A stretch of DNA of 64,000 nucleotides from a virus (IMGVR_UViG_3300038435_000048:12277-76276), one strand, 5' to 3'; positions 694 to 35,373 are shown, counted from the stretch's first letter. The notes: a model not told the origin generated them from the letters alone. Translations and numbers: made by a program.

Positions 694-1342
694 TATTCCA
701 GACGATGCCGTTGCTCAAGTACTCGATCAGTACCACCCTCTTGTGCGTTACATAGCCAAGCGGGCCTTTCACTCATCGTCTACACTAGATATCAATGATC
801 TATATCAAGTGGGTGATATGGCGGTGTTGAGAGCGGTGAAAGCATACGATCCCTCTTCTGGTCGCAACATCAAATCGTTCGTGGCAAACTCGATTCGAAA
901 TGCCATCTTCAATGAGGCTGCTCGTTTCCTCGGTGTGTTCACAGTAGATGTTAGAACCACCACTCAAGCCTCCTTCGCTGCCAAGATGCATGAAAAGGGA
1001 AAAAGTGACGAGGAGATTGGGGCGGCATTGACCGAAAAGTATGGTCGTAACTTTGATGCCGAGCACGCACGCGACTTGCGTCTTACCTACAATCGCAGAC
1101 TGTATACGCCGGTTCCGGAACACTTGACTGTTGAAGGTCTTGAGAACGATATTACTATCAAAGAATTGCTTGATAGTGTTGTCAAGGATGAAGTCGATCG
1201 CGTCATTCTTGATAGACGTATTTTGGGTGGTTGCTCCGTTGAACAAACTGCTGCCATTCTTCACATTTCAAAGAAGGCGGTTTCCAAAAAAGAAATCTGC
1301 CTCAAGACTAGAATTAAGCGAGCCCTTGAGGACGCAGCATGA
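683..1342 (+). CDS. RNA polymerase sigma-70 family factor
   Basis: Region 2-like DLYQVGDMAVLRAVKAYDPSSGRNIKSFVANSIRNAI and region 4 HTH ILGGCSVEQTAAILHISKKAVSKKEICLKTRIKRAL. Start chosen at the internal MMVDIPDD, overlapping the upstream stop. Confidence 0.8.
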   Translation: MMVDIPDDAVAQVLDQYHPLVRYIAKRAFHSSSTLDINDLYQVGDMAVLRAVKAYDPSSGRNIKSFVANSIRNAIFNEAARFLGVFTVDVRTTTQASFAAKMHEKGKSDEEIGAALTEKYGRNFDAEHARDLRLTYNRRLYTPVPEHLTVEGLENDITIKELLDSVVKDEVDRVILDRRILGGCSVEQTAAILHISKKAVSKKEICLKTRIKRALEDAA

Positions 1343-3147
1343 GTTACAAAAAGAAAGTTCTGTTTGTCGGTGAAGCCAGTTTTTTGAACACTGGTTTCGC
1401 GACTTACTATCGAGAGTTGTTGCCGCGTTTGGCGGCTACCGGCAAATATGAAATTGCTGAACTTGGCTCATACGCCGCACAGAATGATCCGCGAGTGCAG
1501 GAGTTCATTGCTGGTCGTTGGCGATTCTATGGCGTGATGCCAACCAACGAGGAAGAGCAGCGTGCTTTCCAACAACCTAATCCTCATCCTCGTACACGCG
1601 GACAGAACACGAATCAGTTTGGTGAATACAAGTTTGCTCACGCTTGTGCCGATTTCAAGCCTGATATTGTGATTGACATTCGTGACTGGTGGATGCTTGA
1701 GTTCCAAGAACGCAATATCTTCCGTCAATGGTACAAGTGGATTGTGATGCCCACTGTAGATGCCGAGCCACAGCAAGAAGAGTGGATGCAGACGTACGAG
1801 AACGCTAATATGGTTCTTGCATATTCTGACTATGGCATTGCTACGCTCCGTCGTCAATCGGGTATTTCTCCCAATGGCAAGCGAAGCGTGCGTATCTTCC
1901 CCAAGGCCATGAGACCCGGTGTGGATATCGAGGCTTTCAAGCCCACCGACAAGAAGCTAGCTCGTGAACACTGGAATTTGTCTGCCGACATCCCGATTAT
2001 CGGGACGGTTATGCGTAACCAGAGTCGCAAGCTATATCCCGATTTGATTGACGCTTTTGCGTTCATGAAGAACAAGTACAAGGGCGAACCGCAAGTCGAT
2101 AAGGCCGCTCTGCTCATCCATTCGTGTTGGCCGGATAACGTTTATTCATACGACTATCCTCGCCACATCTTCCGTCTTGAACGCTATGACTGGATGTCGA
2201 ATCACAAAAAGGGTATTCGCGGCGACGTTCTACAATCGCTGTTCTGTCATGCGTGCCAGCAAACGTCGGTAACGTTTGCGGCTAATCTTTGGGGCCGTCC
2301 CGTTCAAGACGGTCGCATCAAGATGCCGTGCAACTATTGTGGCAAAACGGAAGCTTCGCCGCCGAACACAAGTGTTGGATTCGGGCGTACTGACTTGGCC
2401 AAGTTGTACAACCTAATGGACGTATATGTGCAATGCTCCATCTGTGAAGGCGACGGCATGCCGATACAGGAAGCCAAGGCGTGCGGTGTCCCGTCGCTCG
2501 TTGTAGACTATACGGCAATGCGTGAGAAGGGTAGATACCCCAACTATTCCCATTTCGAGGAATCTGGAATTAATGAAGGTAACTACACTTGCCATAAGGG
2601 CGGCGAAGTAATCGAAGTAGATCGTTATTACTATGAGCCTGAAACTTCTTGCAAGAGAGCGTTGCCGAGCATCGCTGATCTAGCTCTCAAGATGCGTAAC
2701 ATGATTAATGATCCTGAGAAGCTAGCCAGAATGGGCAAGGAAGCTCGCGAGTGTGTTGAAGAGAATTATGACTGGGAAAAGCTTTGGCATCAATGGGAGT
2801 ATGTCCTAGATAACGTCAAGATTCTAGACCGTTCCGAAACTTGGGATAGTCCTATTGCTCCGCTTGACGAGATTACTTCTATGCCAGTGCCAGCCAATTT
2901 GACTGACGAACTATACGTTCACTGGCTATACTTGAATGTGCTTAAATATCCTGCGGTTGATACTGATGGTGCCAAGATGTGGATTTCGCATCTACAACAG
3001 GGTGTCACTCGCGATCAATTGATGCAGCAGTTTGTTGCTATTGGTAATCAACAGTCAAGTGTTAGCAAGCTACGTGATCAGGTGCGTTTGGAAATGGGTG
3101 GCAAGGTGAATATGCGTGCCGCTAAGAAGACTCAGGAGTTTGTATGA
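1339..3147 (+). CDS. glycosyltransferase (GT-B/GT4-like) with a C-terminal DUF4214-like domain
   Basis: N-terminal Rossmann half (KVLFVGEASFLNTGFATYYREL) and a GT4 C-half (EGDGMPIQEAKACGVPSLVVDYTAM). C-terminus DELYVHWLYLNVLKYPAVDTDGAKMWISHLQQGVTRDQL resembles DUF4214. Confidence 0.7.
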   Translation: MSYKKKVLFVGEASFLNTGFATYYRELLPRLAATGKYEIAELGSYAAQNDPRVQEFIAGRWRFYGVMPTNEEEQRAFQQPNPHPRTRGQNTNQFGEYKFAHACADFKPDIVIDIRDWWMLEFQERNIFRQWYKWIVMPTVDAEPQQEEWMQTYENANMVLAYSDYGIATLRRQSGISPNGKRSVRIFPKAMRPGVDIEAFKPTDKKLAREHWNLSADIPIIGTVMRNQSRKLYPDLIDAFAFMKNKYKGEPQVDKAALLIHSCWPDNVYSYDYPRHIFRLERYDWMSNHKKGIRGDVLQSLFCHACQQTSVTFAANLWGRPVQDGRIKMPCNYCGKTEASPPNTSVGFGRTDLAKLYNLMDVYVQCSICEGDGMPIQEAKACGVPSLVVDYTAMREKGRYPNYSHFEESGINEGNYTCHKGGEVIEVDRYYYEPETSCKRALPSIADLALKMRNMINDPEKLARMGKEARECVEENYDWEKLWHQWEYVLDNVKILDRSETWDSPIAPLDEITSMPVPANLTDELYVHWLYLNVLKYPAVDTDGAKMWISHLQQGVTRDQLMQQFVAIGNQQSSVSKLRDQVRLEMGGKVNMRAAKKTQEFV

Positions 3148-4403
3148 AATTGCTATTCACGGGACCGCTGCTAGATTTCAGTGGGTTCGCTCACGCTTCT
3201 CGTATCGTCTTGCGTACTCTATTGCAAGATCAGAATATTGAAGTGACTGCTCGTGCTTTGAAGTATGATCAGCTAGACGCTGGTCAGAATTTTGTGCCTG
3301 AGCAATGGTTGTCCGAGGCATTGCAGCGTGATCTGCAAGGCGTCGATATGGCTATCCAAATGACAACGTGCAACGTTGAGGCCGTACCTATTCCTGGTAT
3401 ACTCAATGGCTTGTATACTTTTCTAGAAAGCGGTCACATGCAGGTTTCGTGGGTCGCCAAGGCCAATGAATTTGACTTTTTGATGGTGCCATCGAAGTCT
3501 AATGCTGAGGCGATGCTGAATTCAGGAGTTGTGAAACCTATCATTGTCTGTGGCCTGCCGTGCGATCAAGACATTTATGATAGAGATTACGAGCCATACA
3601 AGCTTGAACATGCAGGTAGTCGTACGGTCTTTTACAACATCTGTCAGTTGAGTAACAAGAAGGGCATTGATGCTTTACTAAGAGCATATCATGCAGGCTT
3701 CTGGGATCGTCCTGATGAAGTCTTGCTCGTCCTTAAAACGTACATTCAAATGTCCAACCGTACTAATGAGTTGGATCAGGTGAAGCAGTATATTCAGAAC
3801 ATCCGTCAGCGTTGTCGCATTCCGGCAGATAGATTTCCGCCGGTCTTGCCTCTTGTCTTTACCATGACGGATGATGAGATTAATGGTCTTCATGCTCGCG
3901 GTGATGCTTATGTATGTTCTTCGCGTGCAGAGGGCTGGGGCATTCCCGTGTTCGATGCACTAGGACACGGCAAAACTGTTATCACTAACTCTGCTGGCGG
4001 TATGGCAGATTTTGTGACTCGTGATAATGCATTGATCTATGGTGGTATGGCAACATACTTCTTTGATACGCCTCACAGTGATCCTGGACTCTACACTGGT
4101 GTTGAACAGTGTTTCGAGCCATGCGTTCCTGAAATGGCTCTTGTGATGAGAAACTTCCACTTGCTTCGTAAGGGTAATGCGGAGGGAGTTCTGGATGATC
4201 AACACAAAGAACAGTGGGAATCAGTATTGATCCGCCGTCAGAATGCTAGGATCGTTGGACAGAAGCATGACTATAGACGTATCTCACCAATCATTACAGG
4301 CCAACTTCATGCCATGCTCAAAGTATGGAAACAAACAGGGACAATAGTCTTCGATGAAACCTTCAAAGAGAATAGCGAAGTACAACCTCAAGCCGCGTCT
4401 TGA
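3144..4403 (+). CDS. glycosyltransferase group 1 (GT4-like)
   Basis: GT4 C-terminal signature VCSSRAEGWGIPVFDALGHGKTVITNSAGGMADFV; ATGA coupling to the upstream gene. Confidence 0.7.
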   Translation: MKLLFTGPLLDFSGFAHASRIVLRTLLQDQNIEVTARALKYDQLDAGQNFVPEQWLSEALQRDLQGVDMAIQMTTCNVEAVPIPGILNGLYTFLESGHMQVSWVAKANEFDFLMVPSKSNAEAMLNSGVVKPIIVCGLPCDQDIYDRDYEPYKLEHAGSRTVFYNICQLSNKKGIDALLRAYHAGFWDRPDEVLLVLKTYIQMSNRTNELDQVKQYIQNIRQRCRIPADRFPPVLPLVFTMTDDEINGLHARGDAYVCSSRAEGWGIPVFDALGHGKTVITNSAGGMADFVTRDNALIYGGMATYFFDTPHSDPGLYTGVEQCFEPCVPEMALVMRNFHLLRKGNAEGVLDDQHKEQWESVLIRRQNARIVGQKHDYRRISPIITGQLHAMLKVWKQTGTIVFDETFKENSEVQPQAAS

Positions 4404-4410
4404 GAACGAG

Positions 4411-4698
4411 ATGCGGGTTTCACGCCCGCAACTTGGCAAAAAGGCCGACTATGCTGGTAGCCGCACTGCGGCCATTCAGTTGTTTTGTCTTTCTTGTATG
4501 GGTGGTTGCCGTGCGGATGTAGTAGCGTGTGCTTCTTATTCGTGTCCATTATGGCAATTTCGACCGGGCGGCAAGAAGGGTGTTAGACCTGCTGGCATTC
4601 CTACTGCTGAACAATACGATGAAATGATTGATGATAGTGTCAGTGCCAAACAACGTGCTGCTGGCAGAAAGTTACGGGAGAAGAATGATGGAGAGTGA
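4411..4698 (+). CDS. small Cys-rich (putative zinc-binding) protein
   Basis: Motif FCLSCMGGCRADVVACASYSCPLWQFRPG. Start inferred at the internal Met just after the upstream stop. Confidence 0.4.
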   Translation: MRVSRPQLGKKADYAGSRTAAIQLFCLSCMGGCRADVVACASYSCPLWQFRPGGKKGVRPAGIPTAEQYDEMIDDSVSAKQRAAGRKLREKNDGE

Positions 4699-4885
4699 TA
4701 GAAGATTTGCTTACGTGAAACGTTCAAGTAAGTATGAGAAGATTGACTTCTCGCAGATTGCAGTCAACGAATCCTTCATTCTCTGTGAGCCGGATGGCAC
4801 TCCTGTTGGGCATTATGTTGCGGCATCATGGCCATACGAGCAGCGTGGCATTGAGACTATTCAGGTTGTGGAGTGTAAGAAATGA
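4685..4885 (+). CDS. hypothetical protein
   Basis: ORF with ATGATG start overlapping the upstream stop. Confidence 0.35.
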   Translation: MMESDRRFAYVKRSSKYEKIDFSQIAVNESFILCEPDGTPVGHYVAASWPYEQRGIETIQVVECKK

Positions 4886-5988
4886 ATCAGATGTACTATG
4901 AGCCTCAGATGAAATCGATCTCGGAGCGTGTGAATCGCAAGCCGCGATTGGTGCAGTGCATTCAGATGTTGAATGAAGAATACTTTGCCCCCCTGGTTCT
5001 TAGTTCGATCTATGATCAGGTAGATCGTATCATTGTTATCGAAGGGGCGGTCGCGAACAATCCACGTTCAACTCCAGATGGACATTCTATTGACAAGACA
5101 CGCGAAGTGCTGGCGGATTTCAAGGCCAATCACGATCCCAAGAAGAAGGTTGTTGTAATTTCAATCAACAAACACTGGAAGAACTTGGAAGAGATGAAGC
5201 AGACATTCCTGGACATGTCTATTCCAGGCGATTGGATGCTCATTAACGACGCGGATGAATTTTATCGTCCACAGGATATAGTCCGTCTTCGTCAGGCTAT
5301 TGAACTGAATCCTCATGCCTGCGAATTTGTGCCGAACTTCTTACACTTCTATGGCGACTACTTGCACGTTGCCAAACCTGGGCCGGAATGGCAGCCACAA
5401 CACCAACGTATTTTCAAGTACGTTCGTGGCATGAAGTACAACAGTCACCCGGTTGTTACTGACCCTGTGGGGCATTGCACCTACTTCTCGCCACACTATC
5501 AGCATCGTAGGGTCATGCTGAATGACTTCTTTATCTTCCACTATGGCTATGCTCGTGGTAATATGGACGAGATTATGAAGGCCAAGCAGGAATACTACGA
5601 GAAGGAACTCGCGGCACACGGTGCCGCTAATAAGAAGTTTGACCAAAAGGTCAAGGATTGGTTTGCTGATACGGAACCTGTGCTGGAATTTGATGGTCAG
5701 CATCCGGCCGTACTTCAAAACATAACGGCTGCCTTGCCGCCTCATGGTAAGGTTATTGGTAATTGGCGTGACGATCCTTTTTACGCCAAGGTACTTGCTG
5801 GCGAAGAGTATGGTAATATTTGGCTGTGTATGACTCGTCAGTCTCAGCCACATATGAATCATTACCACAATGGTATGACTCTGGATATTCCTATCGCCAT
5901 GTTAGCCGTTCAAGATTCAATGAGGCAACAACAAAGTGCTGGACTGACTGGTCTTGGTGAATCCTGGGCTCATGTTGGCTCTTGCTGA
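4882..5988 (+). CDS. putative GT-A fold glycosyltransferase (DxD motif)
   Basis: IVIEGAVANNP ... WMLINDADEFY DxD-like motif; ATGA coupling. Confidence 0.5.
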   Translation: MNQMYYEPQMKSISERVNRKPRLVQCIQMLNEEYFAPLVLSSIYDQVDRIIVIEGAVANNPRSTPDGHSIDKTREVLADFKANHDPKKKVVVISINKHWKNLEEMKQTFLDMSIPGDWMLINDADEFYRPQDIVRLRQAIELNPHACEFVPNFLHFYGDYLHVAKPGPEWQPQHQRIFKYVRGMKYNSHPVVTDPVGHCTYFSPHYQHRRVMLNDFFIFHYGYARGNMDEIMKAKQEYYEKELAAHGAANKKFDQKVKDWFADTEPVLEFDGQHPAVLQNITAALPPHGKVIGNWRDDPFYAKVLAGEEYGNIWLCMTRQSQPHMNHYHNGMTLDIPIAMLAVQDSMRQQQSAGLTGLGESWAHVGSC

Positions 5989-6000
5989 AATGGTATTATC

Positions 6001-6336
6001 ATGAAAATTCGCAATTGGTTAGGTAGATCCTTTGTTCAATTTGGTGTCAAGCTTCTTGATACATCGAATGGTGCTCTAGTTAAACATGAATTGCTACCCG
6101 CTGAAAGTCCTTTTTTGCAGGTAAGTAGTATTCTATGTAGTGATACTGAAGATGAAATACGAGCACGAGCACTTGTTCGGGCTCGCACCGGAGATGAAAA
6201 ATTGGCGAGGGCGTATATGGCATACGTTCGCGATGTTCCAAAAGGCAGCATTAATGACTTCAATCAATTGAGTGCCGAAGATCGTAGACGTTACTTTGAG
6301 ACTTCTGTTCCTCTCCTGAGTAAGATTGATGCCTAA
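6001..6336 (+). CDS. hypothetical protein
   Basis: ORF in the operon context. Confidence 0.4.
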   Translation: MKIRNWLGRSFVQFGVKLLDTSNGALVKHELLPAESPFLQVSSILCSDTEDEIRARALVRARTGDEKLARAYMAYVRDVPKGSINDFNQLSAEDRRRYFETSVPLLSKIDA

Positions 6337-7168
6337 GCTATCGTATCTTGTTTCGACTTATGATGCTGGTCATTATCTTGACCGACACATTGCCGACTTA
6401 CTTGAAAAGCAAACGGATCAAGACTTCGAAATCGTTGTGATGAATCCCGATTCGCCGGGCACAGACGATATGATTGGTCGTAAGTGGGCTGATATTGATT
6501 CTCGTGTCAAGTATCTATATTGGCCAAAACGAGAGTGGTATGGTACTTCGTGGTTACGTGCTTGGCAATGTGCTACTGGTGACTTTGTTATCAATAGTAA
6601 CACTGACGACTATCATGCCCCCACTACCACAGCAGCATTTCACAAGAATATGACCTATGCGACTAGTGGTATGCATGCTGGTCGCAAGATTGGATTTTGT
6701 TACGCTGGCATTCAAGTCATTGACGAGAATGGCAAGATGCTTGGTGGCGGAATCAAACCTCCATTTGATTTCGAGCTTATGAGTAGGGAATGCTGGGCGG
6801 GTCCTCAAGTTTGTTGGCGTAATGATGCAGCCTTCAAGAAGACGCTAGATTGGGATCTGATGTTCAAGAGGTCTGAACAATACCGATCGGCGTTTGATTA
6901 CTGGCTGTGGCTGTACTTCATGTCCTTGGGATACCACGGATATGTGATACCTCAAGTGCTGACGATTTATACTCAAAGGCCGGGCTCGATCGAGAATAGC
7001 AACAAATCGGCCAACAATTACGAAACTTACTCGGCCATTTCAGAGTTCTTCGGTCACAATTTCAATGGGCACTTGAAGCATGCGATAGAGTTTGTTGACT
7101 TTGGCAGGCGTCCACCACGCGATGAATGGATTGCTACTATGCAGGCTGGTAAGAAATGGAAAGACTAA
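6326..7168 (+). CDS. glycosyltransferase family 2
   Basis: LSYLVSTYDAGHYLDRHIADLLEKQTDQDFEIVVMNPDSPGTDD matches the GT2 N-terminal signature. Confidence 0.7.
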   Translation: MMPKLSYLVSTYDAGHYLDRHIADLLEKQTDQDFEIVVMNPDSPGTDDMIGRKWADIDSRVKYLYWPKREWYGTSWLRAWQCATGDFVINSNTDDYHAPTTTAAFHKNMTYATSGMHAGRKIGFCYAGIQVIDENGKMLGGGIKPPFDFELMSRECWAGPQVCWRNDAAFKKTLDWDLMFKRSEQYRSAFDYWLWLYFMSLGYHGYVIPQVLTIYTQRPGSIENSNKSANNYETYSAISEFFGHNFNGHLKHAIEFVDFGRRPPRDEWIATMQAGKKWKD

Positions 7169-7359: not shown

Positions 7360-7771
7360 TTTGTGGTATAAGCTAGTCGCCAGACGCCTGCAAGCCGATC
7401 ATACTCGTTTGGTGTCTGAGAGTATTGATCTGAATGTCACAATCAAAGGATTAGAACGCACAATCATTAGGCTTGAAGTTGATCTTAAAAACGTCAAAGC
7501 GACTAATGATAAACTGCGTACTGACATTAACACTCTTGAACATCCTACTTTTGTGGGTTCATGGGTGGGAGCACAGGCTCATGCTGCTAAGCAACGCAAT
7601 ACAGAACTTGAACGTCAACTCGGAAAGATGGATTTAGTACGTCAAGCACTCAAGAACGAAAAGGCGTATACTTTATTCCTTGAAGATTGTTTGCTGTGTA
7701 ATAATCCCTCCGACATTTTCAATGCTCTGCCGCTTGAAAAGCGTAAAGAGTATTTTGACAAAGTACAATGA
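7346..7771 (+). CDS. hypothetical coiled-coil protein
   Basis: Heptad-rich sequence (LERTIIRLEVDLKNVKATNDKLRTDINTLE). Confidence 0.4.
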   Translation: MSFANLWYKLVARRLQADHTRLVSESIDLNVTIKGLERTIIRLEVDLKNVKATNDKLRTDINTLEHPTFVGSWVGAQAHAAKQRNTELERQLGKMDLVRQALKNEKAYTLFLEDCLLCNNPSDIFNALPLEKRKEYFDKVQ

Positions 7772-8865
7772 TCAAGGTTTTACACTACCTCCGTCACCTT
7801 GGCTTGGGTGGCACCGAGAAGACTTGTCAGCTATTCTTCGAACATGCTAGTAAGGACTTTGAAGTGGCAGTTGTGTTTGAAGAAACTGGCTGTCATCCTC
7901 GCTTAGACGAATTCTGGAAATCAAGTCAGGTTTGTGGCGGACGGCTTTTCAAGATTAATTCATATCTTGATGGCCCACAGGGGAAGCCGTATTCACATGA
8001 CTTGCAGCACGTCGTTGACAACATCAAGCCTGATATTGTACACGTTTACAGAAGTGGCTACCATGAGTTCCCAAGTCCTGGGTTCCATGTGAAGGTGCCG
8101 CACTTCGTAGAGACTAATGTGTTTGGCTTCTACGACGCCAACCCCAAGATTAGCAAGTCATTGTTCATGAGTAATTGGCTTATGAACAGTACCGTTAAGA
8201 AGCTAGGTTTTAAGCCCGATCGCTTTGATTTCGTTAACAATCCCGTTGAGATGCCGTGTACGAATGATGAGCTTGAAATCGCAAAAAGATGGAAGGCTGA
8301 TGGAGCGATTGTTGTGGGGCGTTGCGGTCGTCCCGATAATGGTATCTATAATGCAGTGAGTGTAGACGCGGTGCGACTGCTACGCATGCAGGGATATGAC
8401 ATCCGATTCTTGGTAGTGGCTCCTCCCTCCAACATGATCGATGATCTGGCACGTCATGACATTCCGTTTTATGTTATCGAACCAACGACAAGCCCACTTG
8501 TTTTGAGTACGTTCTATAATAGCGTTGACATCTATACGCATGCACGAGCGGATGGCGAAACGTTTGGCGTTAACATTGCCGAAGCTATGATTCATGGTAA
8601 GCCTGTGATTACTCATATCGCTACACCAAGCGTTCCTGGCATGGGTGTGTTTCAATCACAGACGGAACTTGTTGATAGTGACAAAACAGGATTTGTTGTT
8701 GAAAATAACCCGGCTGTATATGCAATGGAATTAAAAACTTTGATCGATTGTGAACCATTGAGATTGAAGATGGGCGAGAATGGTAGACGTAAGGCGGAAG
8801 CAGAGTACGAAGTGGGCGTTTGTATGCAGAAGCTAGAACGTATCTATAGAGAAATTGTATCATGA
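7768..8865 (+). CDS. glycosyltransferase group 1 (GT4)
   Basis: VVGRCGRPDNGIYNAVSVDAVRLL ... YTHARADGETFGVNIAEAMIHGKPVITH. Confidence 0.75.
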   Translation: MIKVLHYLRHLGLGGTEKTCQLFFEHASKDFEVAVVFEETGCHPRLDEFWKSSQVCGGRLFKINSYLDGPQGKPYSHDLQHVVDNIKPDIVHVYRSGYHEFPSPGFHVKVPHFVETNVFGFYDANPKISKSLFMSNWLMNSTVKKLGFKPDRFDFVNNPVEMPCTNDELEIAKRWKADGAIVVGRCGRPDNGIYNAVSVDAVRLLRMQGYDIRFLVVAPPSNMIDDLARHDIPFYVIEPTTSPLVLSTFYNSVDIYTHARADGETFGVNIAEAMIHGKPVITHIATPSVPGMGVFQSQTELVDSDKTGFVVENNPAVYAMELKTLIDCEPLRLKMGENGRRKAEAEYEVGVCMQKLERIYREIVS

Positions 8866-11262: not shown

Positions 11263-11560
11263 TGTTTTAGCTGGCTATGGACAGGACGCTGTGACTAAAG
11301 AGCAGCGTCCGGTCATTGCAGGCGAACACATTTTTAAGTTGATCGATTCTAAAGGTATGCCATTAGATCTCGTTCAAGAGCTACTACAAGAACACAAGCT
11401 GGCCTTTGATGTATATGGTTTTATCAAGGCGGCACGTAAAAGCAAAAACTATTCACGAGAGCGACTGATCAATCTATTGATCCCGATAGACAATAAGATG
11501 TCAGATCAACATCAAGCACTGACACGATTTTGCATAGACAAGGTATACAATGATTCGTAA
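11252..11560 (+). CDS. hypothetical protein
   Basis: Internal Met start (MDTDVLAGYG) immediately after the upstream stop. Confidence 0.35.
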   Translation: MDTDVLAGYGQDAVTKEQRPVIAGEHIFKLIDSKGMPLDLVQELLQEHKLAFDVYGFIKAARKSKNYSRERLINLLIPIDNKMSDQHQALTRFCIDKVYNDS

Positions 11561-14401: not shown

Positions 14402-15062
14402 TTCGGTCAGTGTTTTGATCTGCTGTCACAGCGTCGATCACGAGCATGATGTGCTCCTGCAAGAAGCTCTTGAGTCTTTGACTCGACAGACGTATCCGAA
14501 CTTTGAGACTGTTCTAGTTCTTGACCAATGCCACGAAGGCACGAAATGGACAGCAGAGCCGTACAAGGACATCTTGAATCTCAAAATTCACGAACGTCCA
14601 CACAAGCAGGGCTTGGCAATGGCCAAGAACTTTGGACTAGCTCACTGCTCTGGCGATTGGATCGCCTATCTTGACGCCGACGATCAGTGGATGGACTGCA
14701 AGCTTGAATGGCAACGCAACTTTCTACTAGAGAATCCAGGTGTGGATTTCTGCTTTACGGAAGCATGGGACAGAACTGGGGGCGTGCTATTGCCTAACTG
14801 TTTCAAGGTTGGTCAATATGAAACGCACGCCCAGATTGCAGCGGCTATTGGACGCGAGAATGTAGTGTGTCACGGCTCAGCGTTGATCAGGAAGCTCGCA
14901 ATCAATTCGCTAGGTGGCTACCGCACTGATCGTTCGCTCCTGGGTCGAGAAGACTGGGATCTTTGGAAGCGTGCCATTGAAGGTGGCTTCACCTTCCATA
15001 AGATTCGTGAACGTCTTTACATTTACTCGATGGGGACAAGCGTAACACGCGGCGAAGTATGA
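14388..15062 (+). CDS. glycosyltransferase family 2
   Basis: VSVLICCHSVDHEHDVLLQEALESLTRQTYPNFETVLVLDQ and DWIAYLDADDQW. Confidence 0.7.
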   Translation: MKESDSVSVLICCHSVDHEHDVLLQEALESLTRQTYPNFETVLVLDQCHEGTKWTAEPYKDILNLKIHERPHKQGLAMAKNFGLAHCSGDWIAYLDADDQWMDCKLEWQRNFLLENPGVDFCFTEAWDRTGGVLLPNCFKVGQYETHAQIAAAIGRENVVCHGSALIRKLAINSLGGYRTDRSLLGREDWDLWKRAIEGGFTFHKIRERLYIYSMGTSVTRGEV

Positions 15063-16060
15063 AGGTTCTGTACGTAGGCTTGAAGTTCAATTATGGGAAG
15101 CGTGAAGAGGGCTTCTCATATGAACACATGAATATCGAAGCCGGTATTCGTGACTGCATGAAGCGTGGCACGTTGCAGGCTGATTTTTATTGGCCAGACA
15201 TGCCTGATCGTTGCGAGATCAATGGCGAAGAGAGCGTGCTACATCCCAACGATAAGTTGGGCCTACTCAACAATCACATTGATGCCGTATTCCATGTTGC
15301 ATTCAACGAGTCGTTGGATCTACCAGAAGACGTTGCCAAGCTTGCGATCAAGCGAGACATTCCGGTCATTCAATGGGACTGCGACTCTAGCTGGCGATTC
15401 AAGAATTGGGTCTTCCCTCGCAGAGATCGTGTCACGCATTTTGTGACAACTCACTCGGCAACCATTCCAGAGTATCAACGGAATGGCATGAAAGTGATCA
15501 AGTCGCAGTGGGCTGGTTCTCCCGCCTATAAGGCGTACGAAGCTTTGTACGAGTACGATACCACGTTCGTTGGACAGAAGCATGGTCAGATGCCGAATGG
15601 CAAGTTCCTTCGCAGCGAGATCGTGGACGCGATGATGGCTGCGGGCATCAAGCTTGATCTGTTTGGCAACTACTGGGACGGCTATGCTAATTGGCACGGC
15701 TATCGTCAGAACTTCGAAGACATTATTCGTGTATTCAATTGCTCGCGTGTCAATCTGAACCTTTCGAATCCATGGCACCATGGCACAATGCCTCAGATCA
15801 AGGGCAGACACTTCGAGATCCCTCAGTGCGGCGGCTTTCAGATCAGCACGCCAGCCGACGATCTTGAAACGTATTTCGTGCCCGGCAAAGAGATCGTCAT
15901 TGTCAACAGCGTTCAAGACTTGATCGAAAAGACCAAGTATTATTTGGAGCACGCCGACGAGCGTGAGGCTATTGCTAACGCTGGACACGAACGCATGTTG
16001 GCGGAGCACCAGTGGCATCACCGTTTTCAGCACATCTTCCAGGAAGTGGGCCTGCTATGA
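15059..16060 (+). CDS. CgeB-like glycosyltransferase (DUF3880 + Glyco_trans_1_2)
   Basis: TTFVGQKHGQMPNGKFLRSEIVDAMMAAGIKLDLFG...HFEIPQCGGFQIS...EHADEREAIANAGHERMLAEH matches the CgeB family. Confidence 0.65.
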   Translation: MKVLYVGLKFNYGKREEGFSYEHMNIEAGIRDCMKRGTLQADFYWPDMPDRCEINGEESVLHPNDKLGLLNNHIDAVFHVAFNESLDLPEDVAKLAIKRDIPVIQWDCDSSWRFKNWVFPRRDRVTHFVTTHSATIPEYQRNGMKVIKSQWAGSPAYKAYEALYEYDTTFVGQKHGQMPNGKFLRSEIVDAMMAAGIKLDLFGNYWDGYANWHGYRQNFEDIIRVFNCSRVNLNLSNPWHHGTMPQIKGRHFEIPQCGGFQISTPADDLETYFVPGKEIVIVNSVQDLIEKTKYYLEHADEREAIANAGHERMLAEHQWHHRFQHIFQEVGLL

Positions 16061-16593
16061 TCAAGTTGAATCTGGCGTCCCACGGTGACAACCTTGAGGG
16101 CTTCATCAACGTAGACTTTGATCATCCGTCTGCCGACCTCAAGGCTGACGTATCGGCATTGCCATTTCAAGATGATTCCGTCGATGTCATTCTGGCGTTT
16201 CACATCCTCGAACACTTTCGTGCGGGCGAATACGAACCACACCTATCCAATCCGCTCAATCCAAAAACTGCTATGGCGGCACTTGGCGAATGGCGACGCA
16301 TCCTGCGTCCGGGCGGCAAGCTAGAGATCAAGGTGCCAGACTTTGAGAAGATCGTTTGGCTCTACTACCACTTTCCTCAGTGGGCAAGAGCAGAATCCTC
16401 GGTCAATACTCCCTTCGCCAGCTATTCGGACTGGGTTGTTTCCAATGGGCAGCATCAATGCCTATTCGATAAGAAGACCATGCACAGACTCTTGACGCTC
16501 TGTGGCTTCACCAACATCACCTTCTTGGATGGCCCGCCGGTCGCCGTCGTTGACAGAGCCAATTTGGAAATGTACGTTGTGTGCTCAAAATGA
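16057..16593 (+). CDS. class I SAM-dependent methyltransferase
   Basis: FINVDFDHPSADLKADVSALPFQDDSVDVILAFHILEHF ... LRPGGKLEI (Methyltransf_11-like). Confidence 0.65.
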   Translation: MIKLNLASHGDNLEGFINVDFDHPSADLKADVSALPFQDDSVDVILAFHILEHFRAGEYEPHLSNPLNPKTAMAALGEWRRILRPGGKLEIKVPDFEKIVWLYYHFPQWARAESSVNTPFASYSDWVVSNGQHQCLFDKKTMHRLLTLCGFTNITFLDGPPVAVVDRANLEMYVVCSK

Positions 16594-17225
16594 ACTACGC
16601 TACACGCAAAGACAATCACGACTTCTTTACGCCAGACCATGTGGCGTCCTTTCTCCGTAATCACAATACGGGTACGAACAATCACGGTCGTCATCGCCTA
16701 GCCTCTCTTTTGTTCGAGCACGTCAAGCCCACCGTTCTTGACGTAGCCTGCGGCACATGTGTCAACTGGGAAGTATTCAAGGGGCGTGGTCTAGATTGTC
16801 AGTACACCGGAGTGGATCGCACCAAGAAGATGTTGTCTCACGCCAAGGCTTTGTACGGCGACGAGATCAAGCTCGAAGAAGGATACATCCAATCTCTTCC
16901 ATTTCAAGACGCCTCATTTGATGTTGTGATTGCACGTCACATCCTTGAGCATTTAGGGGAAGGGTATGAAGCGGCGATCAAAGAAGTCTATCGTGTAGCC
17001 TCGAAGGAAGCGATCATCGTACTCTTTGTTGATCTTGCTGATATGCCGCATGACGTGATCAAAGAGTCTGAGCCTGACGAGAACGGCTGCACCTACTTTT
17101 GGAACACATACGCTCACGATAAATTCATGGCCTTCCTCGGCACATTAGGTTGTCGCGTGAGCGTAGAATACGTTCAAACCCCAGGTGCGGCTGCGGCGGA
17201 CACCATCATCAGGCTGATCAAATGA
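16590..17225 (+). CDS. class I SAM-dependent methyltransferase
   Basis: VLDVACGTCVNW motif I; SLPFQDASFDVVIARHILEHL. Confidence 0.75.
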   Translation: MNYATRKDNHDFFTPDHVASFLRNHNTGTNNHGRHRLASLLFEHVKPTVLDVACGTCVNWEVFKGRGLDCQYTGVDRTKKMLSHAKALYGDEIKLEEGYIQSLPFQDASFDVVIARHILEHLGEGYEAAIKEVYRVASKEAIIVLFVDLADMPHDVIKESEPDENGCTYFWNTYAHDKFMAFLGTLGCRVSVEYVQTPGAAAADTIIRLIK

Positions 17226-18067
17226 TTGACGTGACGTACGGTGTACTCAACTACAACCCCGACAACAACGAGGTTGCTACCGCTGCGTACATTGCGGCAG
17301 TTGAATCACTTGCTACCAATCGTAGCAAGAATCTGACGAGCGAAGTGTATTTGTTCGATCAGGCTAGTCAGCCCGATCTCACGGGGTCTTTGGCTCGTAA
17401 ACATGGCTTCAATGCCGTCACGTTGCAAAGCAATGTGGGTATTAGTCGTGGTATCAACCTGCTCGCCAATATGGCTCGCGGGCAATACGTGTCTCTCGTG
17501 ACCTCTGATGTGACGTTCACGCCTGGGCTGGACGACACGTTGATTGCCGCATTGCGTGCTGACCCCAAGATCTATCAGATCTGTCCTGTGTCTGACAACT
17601 CATCGCTCGATCACCAGCGTGCTCCATGTGCTCGTGAAGACGGCATCTTGTTGCAGAACCTAGTGCAAGAGTTGACGATTCAATTCTGGCCTCGCACCGT
17701 TTTCGAGAAGATCGGCTACTTCGACGAACGCTGGAAGGCGTGCTACGAGAACATGGACTTCGCCCTCAGGGCGTTCCTTGAGGGTGGCTCTGTCGTGATT
17801 CACCAGGGTGCCTTTTGCCATCACGAACACAATGGCACTACCAAGAGCGGTGCAATTCACAAGGCGTATGATGGCTATCTACCTATGCCGAATGGGTTGA
17901 CGCACGATTTATTGATGCCGATGTGGCGTGCCAAGTGGCCTAACCTCGAAAGGTACATGAACCACTATGAGACGTTTACTAAGGACATGGATCCGCTCCG
18001 GGCGGCGATGTTTCATGCGTACAGCAAGAACGTGTATCTACCGTATGTACAAGAGGTCGCTTACTAG
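17222..18067 (+). CDS. putative glycosyltransferase family 2-like
   Basis: YGVLNYNPDNNE start, typical of GT2; ATGA-coupled. Confidence 0.5.
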   Translation: MIDVTYGVLNYNPDNNEVATAAYIAAVESLATNRSKNLTSEVYLFDQASQPDLTGSLARKHGFNAVTLQSNVGISRGINLLANMARGQYVSLVTSDVTFTPGLDDTLIAALRADPKIYQICPVSDNSSLDHQRAPCAREDGILLQNLVQELTIQFWPRTVFEKIGYFDERWKACYENMDFALRAFLEGGSVVIHQGAFCHHEHNGTTKSGAIHKAYDGYLPMPNGLTHDLLMPMWRAKWPNLERYMNHYETFTKDMDPLRAAMFHAYSKNVYLPYVQEVAY

Positions 18068-18068
18068 C

Positions 18069-18656
18069 ATGAAGCGTTACGACATCATTCGCCACCTGAT
18101 CGAGCAACGTGGCTACAAGTCCTATCTGGAGATCGGCGTACTTGGAAACGAGACGTACAATAGTCTGCCGACGTTGGACGTGAAACACAGCGTAGATCCT
18201 AACGGACAGGCCGTGTTCAACGTCACGTCAGATGAGTTTTTTGAGCGTCACTGCAATCAGAGTTACGACATAATCTTCATTGACGGTCTGCACCTTGCGG
18301 AACAAGTTCAAAGAGATATCGAAAACTCATTGACACACCTAAACGATGGTGGTATAATAGTGGTGCATGACTGCTTGCCTTCGGCAGAGTACGAGCAGTT
18401 GAGAGAAGGGGTTAGCGGCAAACCATGGACTGGGGACGTGTGGAAGGCATTCGCGGCCTTGCGAGCCGATCGTCGTGACCTGATCATGCGTGTCGTGGAT
18501 ACAGACTATGGATGCGGACTCATTGAGCGTGGCGTTGATCCCTGCGTGCTTGTTGAGCTTCGTCCAATTGACGGCTACACCTGGGACTTCTTTTGTAAGC
18601 ATCGTAACAAGATCATGGGTGTAATCACCGTGGAGCAGTTCATTGGATGTGCATAA
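18069..18656 (+). CDS. class I SAM-dependent methyltransferase (CmcI/Methyltransf_24-like)
   Basis: SYLEIGVLGNETY ... YDIIFIDGLHLAEQVQRDIE ... GGIIVVHDC. Confidence 0.6.
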   Translation: MKRYDIIRHLIEQRGYKSYLEIGVLGNETYNSLPTLDVKHSVDPNGQAVFNVTSDEFFERHCNQSYDIIFIDGLHLAEQVQRDIENSLTHLNDGGIIVVHDCLPSAEYEQLREGVSGKPWTGDVWKAFAALRADRRDLIMRVVDTDYGCGLIERGVDPCVLVELRPIDGYTWDFFCKHRNKIMGVITVEQFIGCA

Positions 18657-19170
18657 TCGTGACTGGGTTGTAGCCCGTAACAATCTCTTGCAGGGTAAGC
18701 TGCTTGAGATTGGCAGCTTTGTTGTGCCGGGACAAGAGCATATCGCACTTCGTCCAGCGGTTGAGAAGTTCGTCGATAGCTATCTTGGCATCGATATGCG
18801 TGCAGGACCGGGCGTTGATCTCGTCACAAGCGAAGACAACGCCTTTCCTTTTGAACCGAACACGTTTGACGTGGTTGTGTCGCTCGATACCCTAGAGCAT
18901 GTTCGCAACCCCTGGACGTTCATTGAGAATGCTGCGAGAGTTTTGAAGCCCGGTGGCCACTTCTTTTTGGCTACCGTGTTTTCATTTCCGATTCATGGTT
19001 ACCCAGACGACTACTGGCGTTTCACTCCGAACTGCTTGAAGATGCTCATCGAGACCTACGGTCTCGAAGTCGCAGGAGATTTGACGCCATCCCAGTGTTG
19101 CACAACCAATCCTGCTCATCACTTAGCGAACCCCACAATCGTTCGCTTGATTGCGAGAAAGCCACTATGA
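18643..19170 (+). CDS. class I SAM-dependent methyltransferase
   Basis: LLEIGSFVVPG ... FDVVVSLDTLEHVRNPWTFIENAARVLKPGGHFF. Confidence 0.65.
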   Translation: MDVHNRDWVVARNNLLQGKLLEIGSFVVPGQEHIALRPAVEKFVDSYLGIDMRAGPGVDLVTSEDNAFPFEPNTFDVVVSLDTLEHVRNPWTFIENAARVLKPGGHFFLATVFSFPIHGYPDDYWRFTPNCLKMLIETYGLEVAGDLTPSQCCTTNPAHHLANPTIVRLIARKPL

Positions 19171-20159
19171 AGGTACTTGTAACTGGTGGCAATGGATTCG
19201 TTGGAAAGCACGTCGTTGCGGCACTGAATGCCGCAGGGCACGAAGTCGTCGCACCTACAAGCAAGGAATGGAATTGGCTTGTGTGCGGTGACATGCTTAG
19301 TGCAGATGTCCTACCGTCTGTGCTTGATACGCACATCACTCAACTGCGTAGAGGCAGATTTGATGCCGTCATTCACCTTGCTACCATCTGTGGTGGTATT
19401 GGCATCAACAAGGACAATCCAGGCAAGTTCATGTATGAGAACTTGCAGATGGGCTTGAATGTTGTCGAAGCGTGTCGCCTCGCTCACATCAAGAAGCTTG
19501 TAAACCTCAGCACTGTTTGCTCATATCCCAAGCACACACCAGTGCCATTCAAAGAGAGCGACATCTGGAACGGCTATCCAGAAGAGACCAATGCTCCATA
19601 TGGCATCGCCAAGAAGGCGATCGTCGAACTTGGCATTGCATACGCCCGCCAGTACGGACTGAATGTCACTAACTTAGTTCCAGTGAATATGGCGGGTGAG
19701 TTCGATCACTTCGACCTTTACAGCAGTCACGTCATTCCTGCTATCATCAAGAAGTTCGAGAGTCCACTTGTGGATACCACTGGTCAGTTTGGTATCTCAC
19801 CCCATAACTACCCAAAGAAGTATGTTGAGCTATGGGGAAGCGGGCGTGCATCACGCGAGTTCTTGTATGCTGGCGACTGTGCGAAAGCTATCGTTTCAAG
19901 CCTTGATAAGAACACCGGACCAGATCCGATCAATCTAGGTACTGGCCGCGAAATCACTATTCAAGATCTAGCTACGTTGATCAAGAAGATCGGTGGCTAC
20001 GACGCCGATATCGTGTGGGTTCTCAGTAAGCCAGACGGCCAACCACGCAGAAGCCTAGACACTTCACGAGCCAAACAGGTTCTTGGTTGGGAAGCTACTA
20101 CACCCATTGAAGAGACTGTGCGTCGCACAATTGAATGGTATAGAGCGAATCATGGGTAG
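19167..20159 (+). CDS. fcl: GDP-L-fucose synthase (GDP-4-keto-6-deoxy-D-mannose 3,5-epimerase/4-reductase)
   Basis: MKVLVTGGNGFVGKHV Rossmann start and STVCSYPK, ETNAPYGIAKK, LVPVNMAGEFDHFDLYSSHVIPA, LWGSGRASREFLYAGDCA, KPDGQPRRSLD. These track E. coli Fcl motifs. Confidence 0.8.
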   Translation: MKVLVTGGNGFVGKHVVAALNAAGHEVVAPTSKEWNWLVCGDMLSADVLPSVLDTHITQLRRGRFDAVIHLATICGGIGINKDNPGKFMYENLQMGLNVVEACRLAHIKKLVNLSTVCSYPKHTPVPFKESDIWNGYPEETNAPYGIAKKAIVELGIAYARQYGLNVTNLVPVNMAGEFDHFDLYSSHVIPAIIKKFESPLVDTTGQFGISPHNYPKKYVELWGSGRASREFLYAGDCAKAIVSSLDKNTGPDPINLGTGREITIQDLATLIKKIGGYDADIVWVLSKPDGQPRRSLDTSRAKQVLGWEATTPIEETVRRTIEWYRANHG

Positions 20160-20691
20160 ACTAGCATTAGATCTAAATGGTAAACGCTTTGGCAGACTTG
20201 TCGTTAGCGATCAGGTGCGTAAGGTTGGACGTGCCGTACAACGCCTATGTCATTGTGAATGTGGTCATGAGACTTGGCAGATAGCAAATCATCTAACTTC
20301 TGGACACACCAAGAGTTGTGGGTGTTTATTGCGTGAATTCAAAAAGCTTAGTCCTGGAATGGCAGCCAGAAATGAAGTGCTAGATGACTATAGGCGTGGT
20401 GCTGCAAGTCGTGGACTTGAATGGAAACTAACAGACGACGAGTTTGACGCACTCATGTCTTCTGAATGCTTTTACTGTCACAGACAGCCAAATACCAGTC
20501 GAAAGTCAAGAAGATCTAATGGAGATTTTACCTATAATGGTATTGATAGGCTTGACAATAACAGAGGGTATAGACCGGCTAATGTTGTCGCATGTTGCAA
20601 GATCTGTAATCGAGCCAAGAGCGATATGACATATGATGAATTTACCGACTGGTTGCACGACGTGAGCGAGGCTATTCATGGAATCAAATAG
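20155..20691 (+). CDS. HNH homing endonuclease
   Basis: CxCxCG...KSCGC N-terminal module; CFYCHRQP...NGIDRLDNNRGYRPANVVACCKICNRAK HNH motif. Inserted between fcl and gmd. Confidence 0.75.
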   Translation, partial: GRLALDLNGKRFGRLVVSDQVRKVGRAVQRLCHCECGHETWQIANHLTSGHTKSCGCLLREFKKLSPGMAARNEVLDDYRRGAASRGLEWKLTDDEFDALMSSECFYCHRQPNTSRKSRRSNGDFTYNGIDRLDNNRGYRPANVVACCKICNRAKSDMTYDEFTDWLHDVSEAIHGIK

Positions 20692-21709
20692 AAAGCGTGT
20701 CGCCATGATCACTGGCGTCACTGGCCAGGACGGTTTCTATCTTGCTCACCATCTGCTGCAAGCGGGCTACTACGTTGTTGGTATTCGCCGCCGCACGTCA
20801 ATGCCCACGGATGGACGCCTCCGCACATTGCGTGGCAGCCCGAATTTCGTGTTAGTCGATGGTGACATTTCTGACCTTTCAAGCCTACAGGACATAGTGC
20901 GAAAGTTCCAACCAGATGAATTTTATCATTTGGCCGCACAAAGTCATGTCGCTATGTCCTGGAAATACCCGATCACTACTTGTGAACTGACAGGTCTTGG
21001 CGTCCTCAATTGTCTTGAAGCTATTCGTCAAGAGAAGATTGATTGTCGCTTCTACTTTGCTGGCTCAAGTGAACAGTTTGGCAACCCCATCCATAATGGC
21101 AAGGTAGCGAGCTTGAATGAAGATACGCCGATGGAGCCTGAGTCACCATATGCGGCGGCTAAGGTCTTTGGCTACAATATTTCTCAGGTGTATCGTCGTT
21201 CATTCGGCATGTACACAGCCTGTGGCATCTTGTTCAACCATGAGTCACCACTGCGAGGCGAAGAGTTCGTAACCCGCAAAATTACGAGCAACCTTGCTCG
21301 TGTCAAGTGGGGACTTCAAGAGTATGTCGAGCTTGGTAATATGGATGCTTGCCGCGACTGGGGCTTTGCTGGTGATTACGTGCGTGCGATGCACGCAATG
21401 CTACAGCTAGACGCTCCAGACGATTTCGTAATTGCAACGGGCTCTACTCATTCTGTACATGAGTTCTTTAATGCTTGTTGTAAGTGGTTTGGTCTGTCTC
21501 CTGAAAAGGTTTATCGGATCAATCCTGAATTCAAACGCCCTAAGGATGTTGAAGTATTGTTGGGCGATTCTTCCAAGGCTAGAGAGTTGTTAAACTGGTA
21601 TCCTCAGTGTGACTTCAATCAGCTAGTCGAGAAGATGTGTCGTTATGATCATCATCTTCAATCTCCCAATTCTGACTATGCCCGCAGGGCAGACGAATTC
21701 CTTTTCTAG
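20678..21709 (+). CDS. gmd: GDP-mannose 4,6-dehydratase
   Basis: MITGVTGQDGFYLAHHLLQAGYYVVGIRRRTS ... SPYAAAKVFGYNISQVYRRSFGMYTACGILFNHESPLRG. Confidence 0.85.
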   Translation: MESNRKRVAMITGVTGQDGFYLAHHLLQAGYYVVGIRRRTSMPTDGRLRTLRGSPNFVLVDGDISDLSSLQDIVRKFQPDEFYHLAAQSHVAMSWKYPITTCELTGLGVLNCLEAIRQEKIDCRFYFAGSSEQFGNPIHNGKVASLNEDTPMEPESPYAAAKVFGYNISQVYRRSFGMYTACGILFNHESPLRGEEFVTRKITSNLARVKWGLQEYVELGNMDACRDWGFAGDYVRAMHAMLQLDAPDDFVIATGSTHSVHEFFNACCKWFGLSPEKVYRINPEFKRPKDVEVLLGDSSKARELLNWYPQCDFNQLVEKMCRYDHHLQSPNSDYARRADEFLF

Positions 21710-24156: not shown

Positions 24157-24157
24157 T

Positions 24158-35372: not shown

Positions 35373-35373
35373 T

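Follow-up and report, generated by a model that had tools for sequence, protein, structure and literature searches.

A conserved glycan-synthesis island in an uncultured phage lineage and its possible role in cytoplasmic protein glycosylation

Cyanophage glycan islands have been catalogued for twenty years, none with its product or target demonstrated. In the T4-like cyanophages S-SCSM1, S-SRM01, S-SCSM2R, and P-SSM2, where these regions are labeled 'LPS' (lipopolysaccharide) or 'cell-wall synthesis and modification', GDP-mannose 4,6-dehydratase (GMD) together with GDP-L-fucose synthase (Fcl) is encoded beside many glycosyltransferases and S-adenosylmethionine (SAM) methyltransferases in a co-directional block of 15-20 kb. 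Of 50,697 phage records, 86 contain GMD itself, and most of these are Kyanoviridae. The island of S-SCSM1 (MK867354), described in PMC9602691, comprises mannose-6-phosphate isomerase (MPI), GMD, Fcl, GME, about nine transferases (three of them fucosyltransferases), and two methyltransferases in about 17 kb; S-SRM01 (MW015081) carries an equivalent island; and S-SCSM2R is reported to have 13 glycosyltransferases, a count that its authors suggest may be the largest of any marine phage (PMC12801897). The chlorovirus PBCV-1 uses GMD and GMER acting on host GDP-mannose, together with soluble transferases and sugar methyltransferases, to make its capsid N-glycan (PMC9614988), and mycobacteriophages glycosylate the C-termini of capsid and tail-tube proteins, as summarized in PMC12619734. 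Here we describe a glycan island at positions 1339-21709 of a 64,000-nucleotide stretch of viral DNA (IMGVR_UViG_3300038435_000048:12277-76276), the whole of which is referred to below as the window, and consider whether its product may be a glycan built on a protein of the virion.

The island is another instance of the type already known in cyanophages, with which it shares the gene content and block-like arrangement given above. A preliminary description, made from the sequence alone, had called this scale uncommon in phages, which is overstated, because S-SCSM1, S-SRM01, and S-SCSM2R carry comparable islands. What sets this island apart is, first, its origin in another phage lineage with no nucleotide match to any of the phage records and, second, its repertoire, which includes four GT4 enzymes, two CgeB-like proteins, and a GT-A enzyme resembling SunS and GmaR. 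Fucosyltransferases are annotated in S-SCSM1 and S-SRM01, whereas no GT10, GT11, or NodZ match was obtained here, and unlike the cyanophage islands, this one is accompanied by no MPI, GME, or NDP-sugar synthase in the window. Finally, cyanophage glycan islands are patchy accessory regions, whereas the block described here is conserved, slowly evolving, and behaves like core genes.

The comparison with chloroviruses, drawn at the outset, is apt. Like PBCV-1 (A118R GMD, A295L GMER, A064R, A111/114R, and A061L), the island combines GMD and GMER functions that would be fed by host GDP-mannose with transferases that have no signal peptide and with probable sugar O-methyltransferases, and one of its GT-A enzymes has a weak likeness to A64R. 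Unlike PBCV-1, it belongs to a bacterial virus, encodes separate single-domain enzymes where the chlorovirus has multidomain ones, and is known from its genes alone. Virion O-glycosylation in mycobacteriophages, which is likewise cytoplasmic and carried out by phage-encoded transferases, is a precedent for the glycosylation of structural proteins in tailed phages. The mycobacteriophages treated by Freeman and colleagues in 2023 reportedly have few transferases, placed beside structural genes, whereas here eleven transferases and a nucleotide-sugar pathway do not adjoin any identified capsid gene. Bacterial O-antigen and colanic-acid clusters also combine gmd and fcl with GT2 and GT4 enzymes; however, the priming transferase, the Wzx/Wzy or ABC transporter, and the chain-length and ligase functions of such clusters are missing from the island.

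On its plus strand, from 572 to about 38,700, the window carries a single tight co-directional gene array, within which the island occupies 20.4 kb and encodes 11 glycosyltransferases, four class-I SAM methyltransferases, gmd, and fcl (all island genes below are on the plus strand). ATGA overlaps occur at 13 of 29 gene junctions, in agreement with the co-directional, ATGA-coupled array first described. The location given for the island at that time also stands, but the length of about 19 kb does not, and for about 5 kb (about a quarter) of the span no relation to glycans can be demonstrated. Placement between a sigma factor and a tail-fiber block holds only loosely. A sigma-70-family factor (572-1342, plus strand; Sigma70_r2, 43.8 bits in Pfam; 31-81% identity in relatives) does adjoin the island, and its stop overlaps the start of the first transferase in an ATGA, i.e., the two are translationally coupled, but the fiber-like genes start only at 34179, 12.5 kb further on. 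A second sigma-70-family gene, unrelated to the first, lies at 44931-45539 (minus strand).

Nine island proteins scored above the Pfam gathering score for glycosyltransferase families (four GT4, three GT2, and two CgeB-like); together with two GT-A enzymes recognized by structure prediction, they account for the approximately 11 transferases originally proposed. The first transferase (GT1; 1339-3147) is a GT4 enzyme of the GT-B type (Glycos_transf_1, 37.7 bits) with a C-terminal DUF4214 domain (28.2 bits) and an inserted zinc-ribbon-like CxxC...CxxC motif, whose four cysteines are invariant; its homologues form more than 120 clusters at 53% identity or more. The second GT4 gene follows at 3144-4403 (Glycos_transf_1, 31.5 bits; Glyco_trans_1_4, 28.2 bits; 51-85% identity in relatives), and the remaining two, at 7768-8865 (Glycos_transf_1, 37.9 bits) and 8862-10016 (Glyco_trans_1_4, 41.2 bits; Glycos_transf_1, 39.9 bits), are paralogues of each other (29% identity, E 2e-40). 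The GT2 enzymes are encoded at 6326-7168 (Glycos_transf_2, 48.8 bits), at 14388-15062 (67 bits), and, in a variable tailoring segment that is shared with some relatives only, at 17222-18067 (38.1 bits). The CgeB-like proteins (Glyco_trans_1_2, PF13524) are encoded at 13550-14401 (39.2 bits) and 15059-16060 (109.4 bits; 53-71% identity in relatives). NCBIfam searches with ten of the transferases returned only matches far below threshold, by which no donor or acceptor could be assigned, and searches of PDB sequences with a CgeB-like protein and two methyltransferases were uninformative.

The two remaining transferases had been put forward as GT-A candidates for structure prediction, and the AlphaFold (AF2) models confirmed both as GT-A folds, which brings the predicted transferase count of the island to 11. 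The gene at 4882-5988 encodes a lineage-specific, GT2-like enzyme with a sub-threshold Pfam GT2 match (E 9e-4), although most of its homologues carry PF00535; its NDADE motif is invariant, and a profile of 14 relatives matches the transferase domain of GmaR (E 2.7e-5). Its model (predicted local distance difference test [pLDDT] score, 85.9), when compared with solved structures using Foldseek, matches ThuS/SunS first (E 1.3e-8), followed by WrtF, TarS/TarP, and SpsA. SunS and ThuS are peptide (glycocin) S-glycosyltransferases, and GmaR is the Listeria flagellin O-GlcNAc transferase. With its nearest solved relatives acting on peptides or proteins, the 4882-5988 product is a candidate initiating enzyme.

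The second of these enzymes (10013-10804; pLDDT, 91.5) has an invariant RDCDSR motif of the DxD type and represents a family without a Pfam model: neither it nor any of 17 relatives has a Pfam or NCBIfam match, yet 1,918 members of the family were detected. The nearest structures to its model are Skp1 alpha-GalT, glycogenin, LgtC, AvpGT, PBCV-1 A64R, and WrtF. The similarity to domain 1 of A64R (A064R) is marginal: the profile match has an E of 0.022, and in Foldseek the E is 2.2e-4 and the template modeling (TM) score is 0.44 when normalized to the query and 0.54 when normalized to the target, ranking below glycogenin and the Skp1 GalT. Further members of the family come from an uncultured phage of 735 kb, an Acinetobacter phage record, and the fucose island of S-SRM01, where the homologue is 34.5% identical.

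The gmd product (20678-21709) matches PF16363 (GDP_Man_Dehyd) over its full length with 352.5 bits and TIGR01472 with 331 bits against a cut-off of 415, and it is about 45% identical to cyanophage GMDs. For the fcl product (19167-20159), a GDP-L-fucose synthase-like protein (GDP-4-keto-6-deoxymannose 3,5-epimerase/4-reductase), NF047922 is by far the best family (229.6 bits; next family, 89 bits), yet the score is under the 500-bit cut-off. Its best PDB match is likewise a GDP-L-fucose synthase, and when the protein was aligned to E. coli GMER (1bws; E 2.6e-45), the equivalents of the catalytic residues Cys109, Tyr136, Lys140, and His179 were all found to be kept. Because both proteins score under the NCBIfam equivalog cut-offs, we consider them divergent members of their families. 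No ManB, ManC, or MPI was found in the window, and GDP-mannose must therefore come from the host; thus, the GDP-L-fucose pathway, which had been called complete, does have both gmd and fcl but is complete only from GDP-mannose onward.

All four SAM methyltransferases previously noted in the array matched class-I families in Pfam. Two stand directly after the second CgeB-like gene: one at 16057-16593 (Methyltransf_23 and Methyltransf_11), with an ATGA junction, and one at 16590-17225 (Methyltransf_11, 69.2 bits; 43-83% identity in relatives), which is part of the conserved core. The other two are in the variable segment, at 18069-18656 (Methyltransf_24, PF13578; 44.7-45.1 bits) and 18643-19170 (Methyltransf_11, 49 bits). 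Judged by family, they are probably generic class-I enzymes of the small-molecule/O-methyl type. As the preliminary description held, this is far more than a single DNA-glucosylating or receptor-modifying enzyme, and the array provides the enzymes required for a multi-sugar, methylated, 6-deoxyhexose-containing glycan.

To assess synteny, every island protein was used as a tblastn query against 41 loci, which derive from 28 related viral contigs. From the sigma factor through gmd, the island is syntenic in all 28 relatives, in the fixed order sigma factor, GT4, GT4, GT-A, GT2, GT4, GT4, GT-A, IMPDH-family gene, CgeB-like, GT2, CgeB-like, methyltransferase, variable slot, fcl, gmd, and regulators; a query unrelated to glycans retrieved four contigs, and the island is present on each of them as well. 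For island genes, the median is 81, 67, and 57% identity in three relatives that span the lineage, versus 71, 57.5, and 47% for other shared genes, i.e., the island is more conserved by about 10 identity points. It thus behaves like a core module, probably inherited vertically, and is neither recently acquired nor accessory. Several GT1 homologues (e.g., P0005, P0008, P0045, P0104, and P0109) are 950-980 amino acids long and contain inteins, with LAGLIDADG or intein-splicing domains. The intein of P0005 interrupts a conserved GT1 motif between GTVMRNQ and SRKLYP, which is taken to be the nucleotide-sugar-binding motif that opens the C-terminal Rossmann domain. To our knowledge, an intein within a glycosyltransferase is unusual.

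The slot between the core methyltransferase and fcl differs among relatives. In the window it holds the third GT2 gene and two methyltransferase genes, and in two distant relatives (L039, 11817-18465; L030, 11900-15814) it holds genes for a HAD hydrolase, an NTP_transferase of the sugar-1-phosphate nucleotidyltransferase type, a Methyltransf_24-like protein, and proteins without assignment. A variable slot before fcl fits a diversifying surface antigen or ligand.

The interpretation that we prefer, with a probability of roughly 0.4, is that a methylated, fucose-containing glycan is assembled in the cytoplasm on a protein acceptor, probably one of the virion. The donors, the acceptors, and the order of the steps that follow are our proposal. 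GMD and the Fcl-like enzyme would convert host GDP-mannose to GDP-L-fucose; the peptide/protein-type GT-A enzyme encoded at 4882-5988 would start the glycan on the protein acceptor; the other ten transferases would extend and branch it; and the four SAM methyltransferases would cap the sugars. The acceptor would most likely be a virion surface protein (capsid, decoration protein, or fiber) glycosylated in the cytoplasm during assembly, by analogy with the capsid of chloroviruses and the capsid and tail of mycobacteriophages. The variable slot may then diversify the glycan among relatives.

Cytoplasmic, protein-linked assembly is favored because membrane machinery is missing, the two lineage-specific GT-A enzymes have peptide- and protein-modifying neighbors, a CgeB-like pair is present, and the island behaves like core genes. 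For the 10013-10804 enzyme, these neighbors include Skp1 alpha-galactosyltransferase, glycogenin, and A64R, a capsid-glycan transferase of PBCV-1. Pfam and hydropathy analysis of the 64-kb window revealed neither a polytopic membrane protein nor a priming phosphoglycosyl transferase, a flippase, a polymerase, a ligase, or an exporter, and none of the island enzymes has a transmembrane segment or a signal peptide (maximum 19-residue hydropathy below 1.6 in all). The CgeB family is named after a Bacillus spore-maturation protein linked to spore-surface glycosylation. Only tentatively do we advance a broader formulation, in which a widespread, uncultured lineage of freshwater phages coats its virions autonomously with a complex, branched, O-methylated, fucose-containing glycan. 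About a dozen phage enzymes would build it wholly within the cytoplasm of the bacterium, with a conserved core glycan and an exchangeable tailoring cassette, and a new protein glycosyltransferase of the SunS/GmaR-like kind would make the start.

Several observations weigh against this interpretation. The island is flanked by the sigma factor and regulators, neither capsid nor tail genes were recognized beside it, and the major capsid gene lies outside the window. About 20 unrelated genes fill the 12.5 kb between the island and the fiber-like genes (34179-38382), whose identity rests on weak PHROG matches to a shared C-terminal domain labeled virion structural or head decoration. The island proteins include no fucosyltransferase of family GT10, GT11, GT23/NodZ, or POFUT by Pfam or NCBIfam; the fucosyltransferase WrtF shows moderate fold similarity to both GT-A models, and it is the only fucosyltransferase likeness found. 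The structural similarities are moderate in general (TM scores of 0.4-0.55), and the neighbors of the GT-A enzymes include LPS and teichoic-acid enzymes (LgtC and TarS/TarP). Soluble peripheral transferases are normal also in LPS and exopolysaccharide (EPS) pathways that borrow host priming and export functions, and the homologous cyanophage islands have been read in print as serving host cell-surface modification (PMC9602691 and PMC12801897).

These last points lead to the main rival explanation, remodeling of the host envelope, which we regard as possible but on balance unlikely. Here the island would build or modify an LPS O-antigen, capsule, or EPS unit on host lipid carriers, with the priming transferase, flippase, and ligase supplied by the host, and the purpose would be superinfection exclusion, avoidance of grazers, or prevention of progeny re-adsorption. 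On the one hand, the most similar islands, those of cyanomyoviruses, are currently interpreted in this way; a set of GT2, GT4, GMD, and Fcl is typical of O-antigen and colanic-acid clusters; the weak best matches of the transferases in NCBIfam are EPS, teichuronic-acid, or LPS transferases; and the window encodes exported phage proteins (a secreted PKD/beta-helix protein, Gly-rich repeat proteins, and lipoprotein-like open reading frames [ORFs]). On the other hand, with none of the priming, flippase, polymerase, ligase, and exporter genes found in 64 kb, the assembly does not look self-sufficient for a lipid-linked, exported polymer. Furthermore, conservation of the island is strict and its evolution slower than that of the replication genes, the GT1 intein suggests, from what is generally known of where inteins persist, that this gene weighs heavily in phage fitness, and a genome of lytic type would probably gain little from a slow change of the host surface.

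Virion glycosylation also has to be weighed against a non-virion acceptor, which seems to us quite improbable. The glycan would in that case be placed on proteins of the phage or the host (such as the exported Gly-rich repeat proteins, prior to their export) or on a glycolipid, or it would be released as a soluble small-molecule or oligosaccharide product. Peptides and proteins other than those of virions are indeed the substrates of the SunS/ThuS-like and GmaR-like neighbors of the 4882-5988 enzyme, the window encodes a paralogous pair of Gly-rich repeat proteins that have N-terminal leaders, and the generic class-I methyltransferases have no assigned substrate. Nevertheless, eleven transferases kept as a lineage-wide block would be a heavy investment for a regulatory or toxin-like modification. 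The nearest candidate acceptors, the products of 12608-12973 and 10801-11262, cannot be the conserved target, because they are essentially confined to the window. We also rejected the ORFs at 12608-12973 and 12973-13566 as a conserved acceptor or as a pair resembling ribosomally synthesized and post-translationally modified peptides, both being essentially absent from relatives.

We know of no described DNA-glycan system that approaches eleven transferases and a GDP-fucose pathway. Although DNA is the classical substrate of phage glycosyltransferases, genes for a dNMP kinase, MazG, and a nucleoside 2-deoxyribosyltransferase-like protein are present in the window, and multi-sugar DNA glycans are known (bioRxiv 10.1101/2023.12.21.572611), we consider it highly improbable that the transferases decorate modified phage bases against restriction, as in T-even phages and 5-hydroxymethylcytosine-glycan systems, because Pfam revealed in the window neither a dCMP/dUMP hydroxymethylase nor a TET/JBP-type dioxygenase, a DNA cytosine methyltransferase, or a DNA-glucosyltransferase family, the presence of ThyX implies ordinary thymidylate, and the methyltransferases appear to be of the small-molecule/O-methyl type.

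Should the virion prove to carry the glycan, the range of complex virus-directed glycosylation, now giant eukaryotic viruses and a few actinophages, would come to include abundant aquatic phages, with a bearing on adsorption, survival outside the host, and evasion of recognition; an autonomous virion coating, if true, would be the bacterial-virus counterpart of giant-virus self-glycosylation. The lineage offers a cleaner test case than the cyanophages do, its island being a slowly evolving, intein-bearing core module, which points to a function in the production of infectious particles. In addition, the locus supplies uncharacterized transferases, namely the Pfam-less GT-A family of about 1,900 members, the SunS/GmaR-like GT-A enzyme, and the zinc-ribbon/DUF4214 GT4 enzyme.

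The window is identified as phage DNA by genes for RNR, DNA and RNA ligases, and NAMPT, an Acb2/Tad1-like gene, and HNH genes (PHROG and Pfam), as well as by a virion structural C-terminal domain (PHROG), and its relatives are viral contigs of IMG/VR. Searched at the nucleotide level, neither the island nor the RNR region matched any of 50,697 phage records, and the window proteins tested reached at most about 46% identity to them. Look-ups of two window proteins by exact sequence found neither on record. Identity to cultured phages is at most 38% for a repair ATPase and at most 35% for DnaE of a relative, and GT1 is 23% identical to its counterpart in Synechococcus phage S-EIVl. Many relatives are present in viral and metagenomic collections, on contigs of up to 183 kb, among them IMGVR_UViG_3300023223_000669 with 183,100 bp. 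By contrast, GT1 was found in only one of 185,579 species-representative genomes, on a 157,945-bp contig (NZ_JAILWB010000012.1) with phage-like content binned in a Hydrogenophaga metagenome-assembled genome, and this contig is most simply explained as a phage genome. Because the cultured matches are distant, the relatives viral or metagenomic, and GT1 limited to this single binned contig, the lineage is regarded as uncultured and the island as essentially phage-restricted. The lineage is apparently a freshwater one, with genomes of about 150-180 kb. We did not adopt Hydrogenophaga as the host, since the sole hint, this one 158-kb contig, is too weak to rely on. Placement among the moraphages (PMC12619734) was dropped as well, these being a different lineage with larger genomes. 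Upstream of the island, a relative (L042, 1-9000) encodes RecA, DnaB, primase, a PD-(D/E)XK nuclease, a protease of the ClpP family, and a Pol III alpha subunit of the DnaE type.

The part of the island not demonstrably related to glycans consists of an IMPDH/GMP-reductase-family gene, an HNH-like ORF, an ORF resembling a fragment of alanyl-tRNA synthetase (AlaRS), a secreted Cys-rich ORF, and several ORFs without assignment. The first of these (11550-12611) encodes a short enzyme of the family lacking CBS domains (Pfam IMPDH, 325 bits; best PDB match, 3r2g from Legionella, 348 bits). Relatives have the gene within their islands too: in most of them identity is about 54-76%, and one close-relative group has only a distant match of about 30%. 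As a supplier of GTP for GDP-sugars it was considered and set aside: NCBIfam scores are 277 bits for IMPDH versus 249 bits for GMP reductase, both below cut-off, and because the sequence fits either enzyme, no role is claimed. Two small ORFs without a family match, at 4354-4698 (Cys-rich) and 4628-4885, are found in close relatives only or in the window alone. The ORF at 10801-11262 encodes a secreted Cys-rich protein with an N-terminal hydrophobic leader and one 45% match in a single relative. The AlaRS-like ORF (about 11252-11560; tRNA-synt_2c, 31 bits) has no match in relatives and is a fragment of roughly 100 amino acids that resembles the catalytic region of the synthetase. The ORFs of 10801-11560 are outside the conserved core. 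Downstream of the IMPDH-family gene are a Pro/Thr-rich ORF (12608-12973; a single 41% match in relatives) and a 197-amino-acid ORF (12973-13566; no match in relatives), neither of which has a family match even at E 5. Thus, apart from the IMPDH-family gene, the ORFs of the stretch 10801-13566 are essentially window-confined, with single 41-45% matches in one relative each; over the whole island, the essentially window-confined ORFs are those starting at 4628, 6001, 7156, 10801, 11099, 12608, and 12973.

An ORF with CxxC/HNH-like motifs, resembling an HNH-type homing endonuclease, splits fcl from gmd (20152-20691); its sporadic occurrence in relatives is as expected for a homing element. It is distantly related (26% identity, E 2e-8) to another HNH-like ORF at 30069-30608, directly after the RNR gene. 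The G+C content steps up modestly to 50-53% in the second half of the island (12001-20000), versus 44-48% in the first half of the island and in the downstream 14 kb. A scan for promoters and terminators gave no enrichment over shuffled sequences (28 versus 26 and 18 versus 16, respectively), an Rfam scan of the whole window had no match, including to the wcaG RNA that is annotated beside the fucose genes of S-SCSM1, and no tRNA gene was found in the window.

Between the island and the fiber-like genes are regulators, the Acb2/Tad1-like gene, MazG, a DAO-family oxidoreductase, RNR, and ThyX. The Acb2/Tad1 hairpin domain is encoded at 24041-24406 (51.9 bits), with a homologue in one related locus only, and belongs to what we take to be a signal-sponge family countering CBASS and Thoeris defense. 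The ORF at 24867-26606, present in the window and absent from relatives, encodes a protein in which a signal peptide is combined with a PKD domain and a long stretch of beta-helix-like appearance; this protein could be a secreted or virion-borne polysaccharide depolymerase. The 1002-amino-acid fiber had no relatives in the scan of viral contigs and only partial matches in neighboring loci, a pattern as expected for a variable receptor-binding protein.

Three enzymes had been reported outside the island. The GT2 enzyme is confirmed (47659-48240, minus strand; Glycos_transf_2, 47.9 bits; 46-64% identity in relatives). The methyltransferase (32492-33157, plus strand) is a Methyltransf_24 protein (PF13578, 37.1 bits), but it has no direct match to a CmcI model. 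The sulfotransferase (61177-61692, minus strand) is marginal, with a Sulfotransfer_2 score of 22.9 bits against a cut-off of 22, only around an RNPWDRxxS motif, and no PDB relative. The Gly-rich repeat proteins are paralogues (31791-32492, plus strand, and 61692-62606, minus strand; 40% identity, E 1.5e-60) without a family match; they share an N-terminal hydrophobic leader, Gly/Asn/Ser-rich repeats resembling those of adhesin heads or fibers, and a C-terminal ...DWRAGSLFEDN.

On the minus strand, the window also encodes the nicotinamide phosphoribosyltransferase NAMPT (62610-63962) and a NADAR-domain protein (55233-55679), a pair suggesting NAD+ salvage and ADP-ribose handling, possibly as a counter-defense. 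Two RNA-ligase-family genes and a CCA-adding tRNA nucleotidyltransferase, at 52793-55213 and 59462-60562 (minus strand), may form a tRNA-repair set. Genes for PhoH, peptide deformylase, and methionine aminopeptidase are direct neighbors at 40576-42698 (minus strand); together with MazG and ThyX, encoded elsewhere in the window, they make up a set associated with cyanophages and other aquatic phages.

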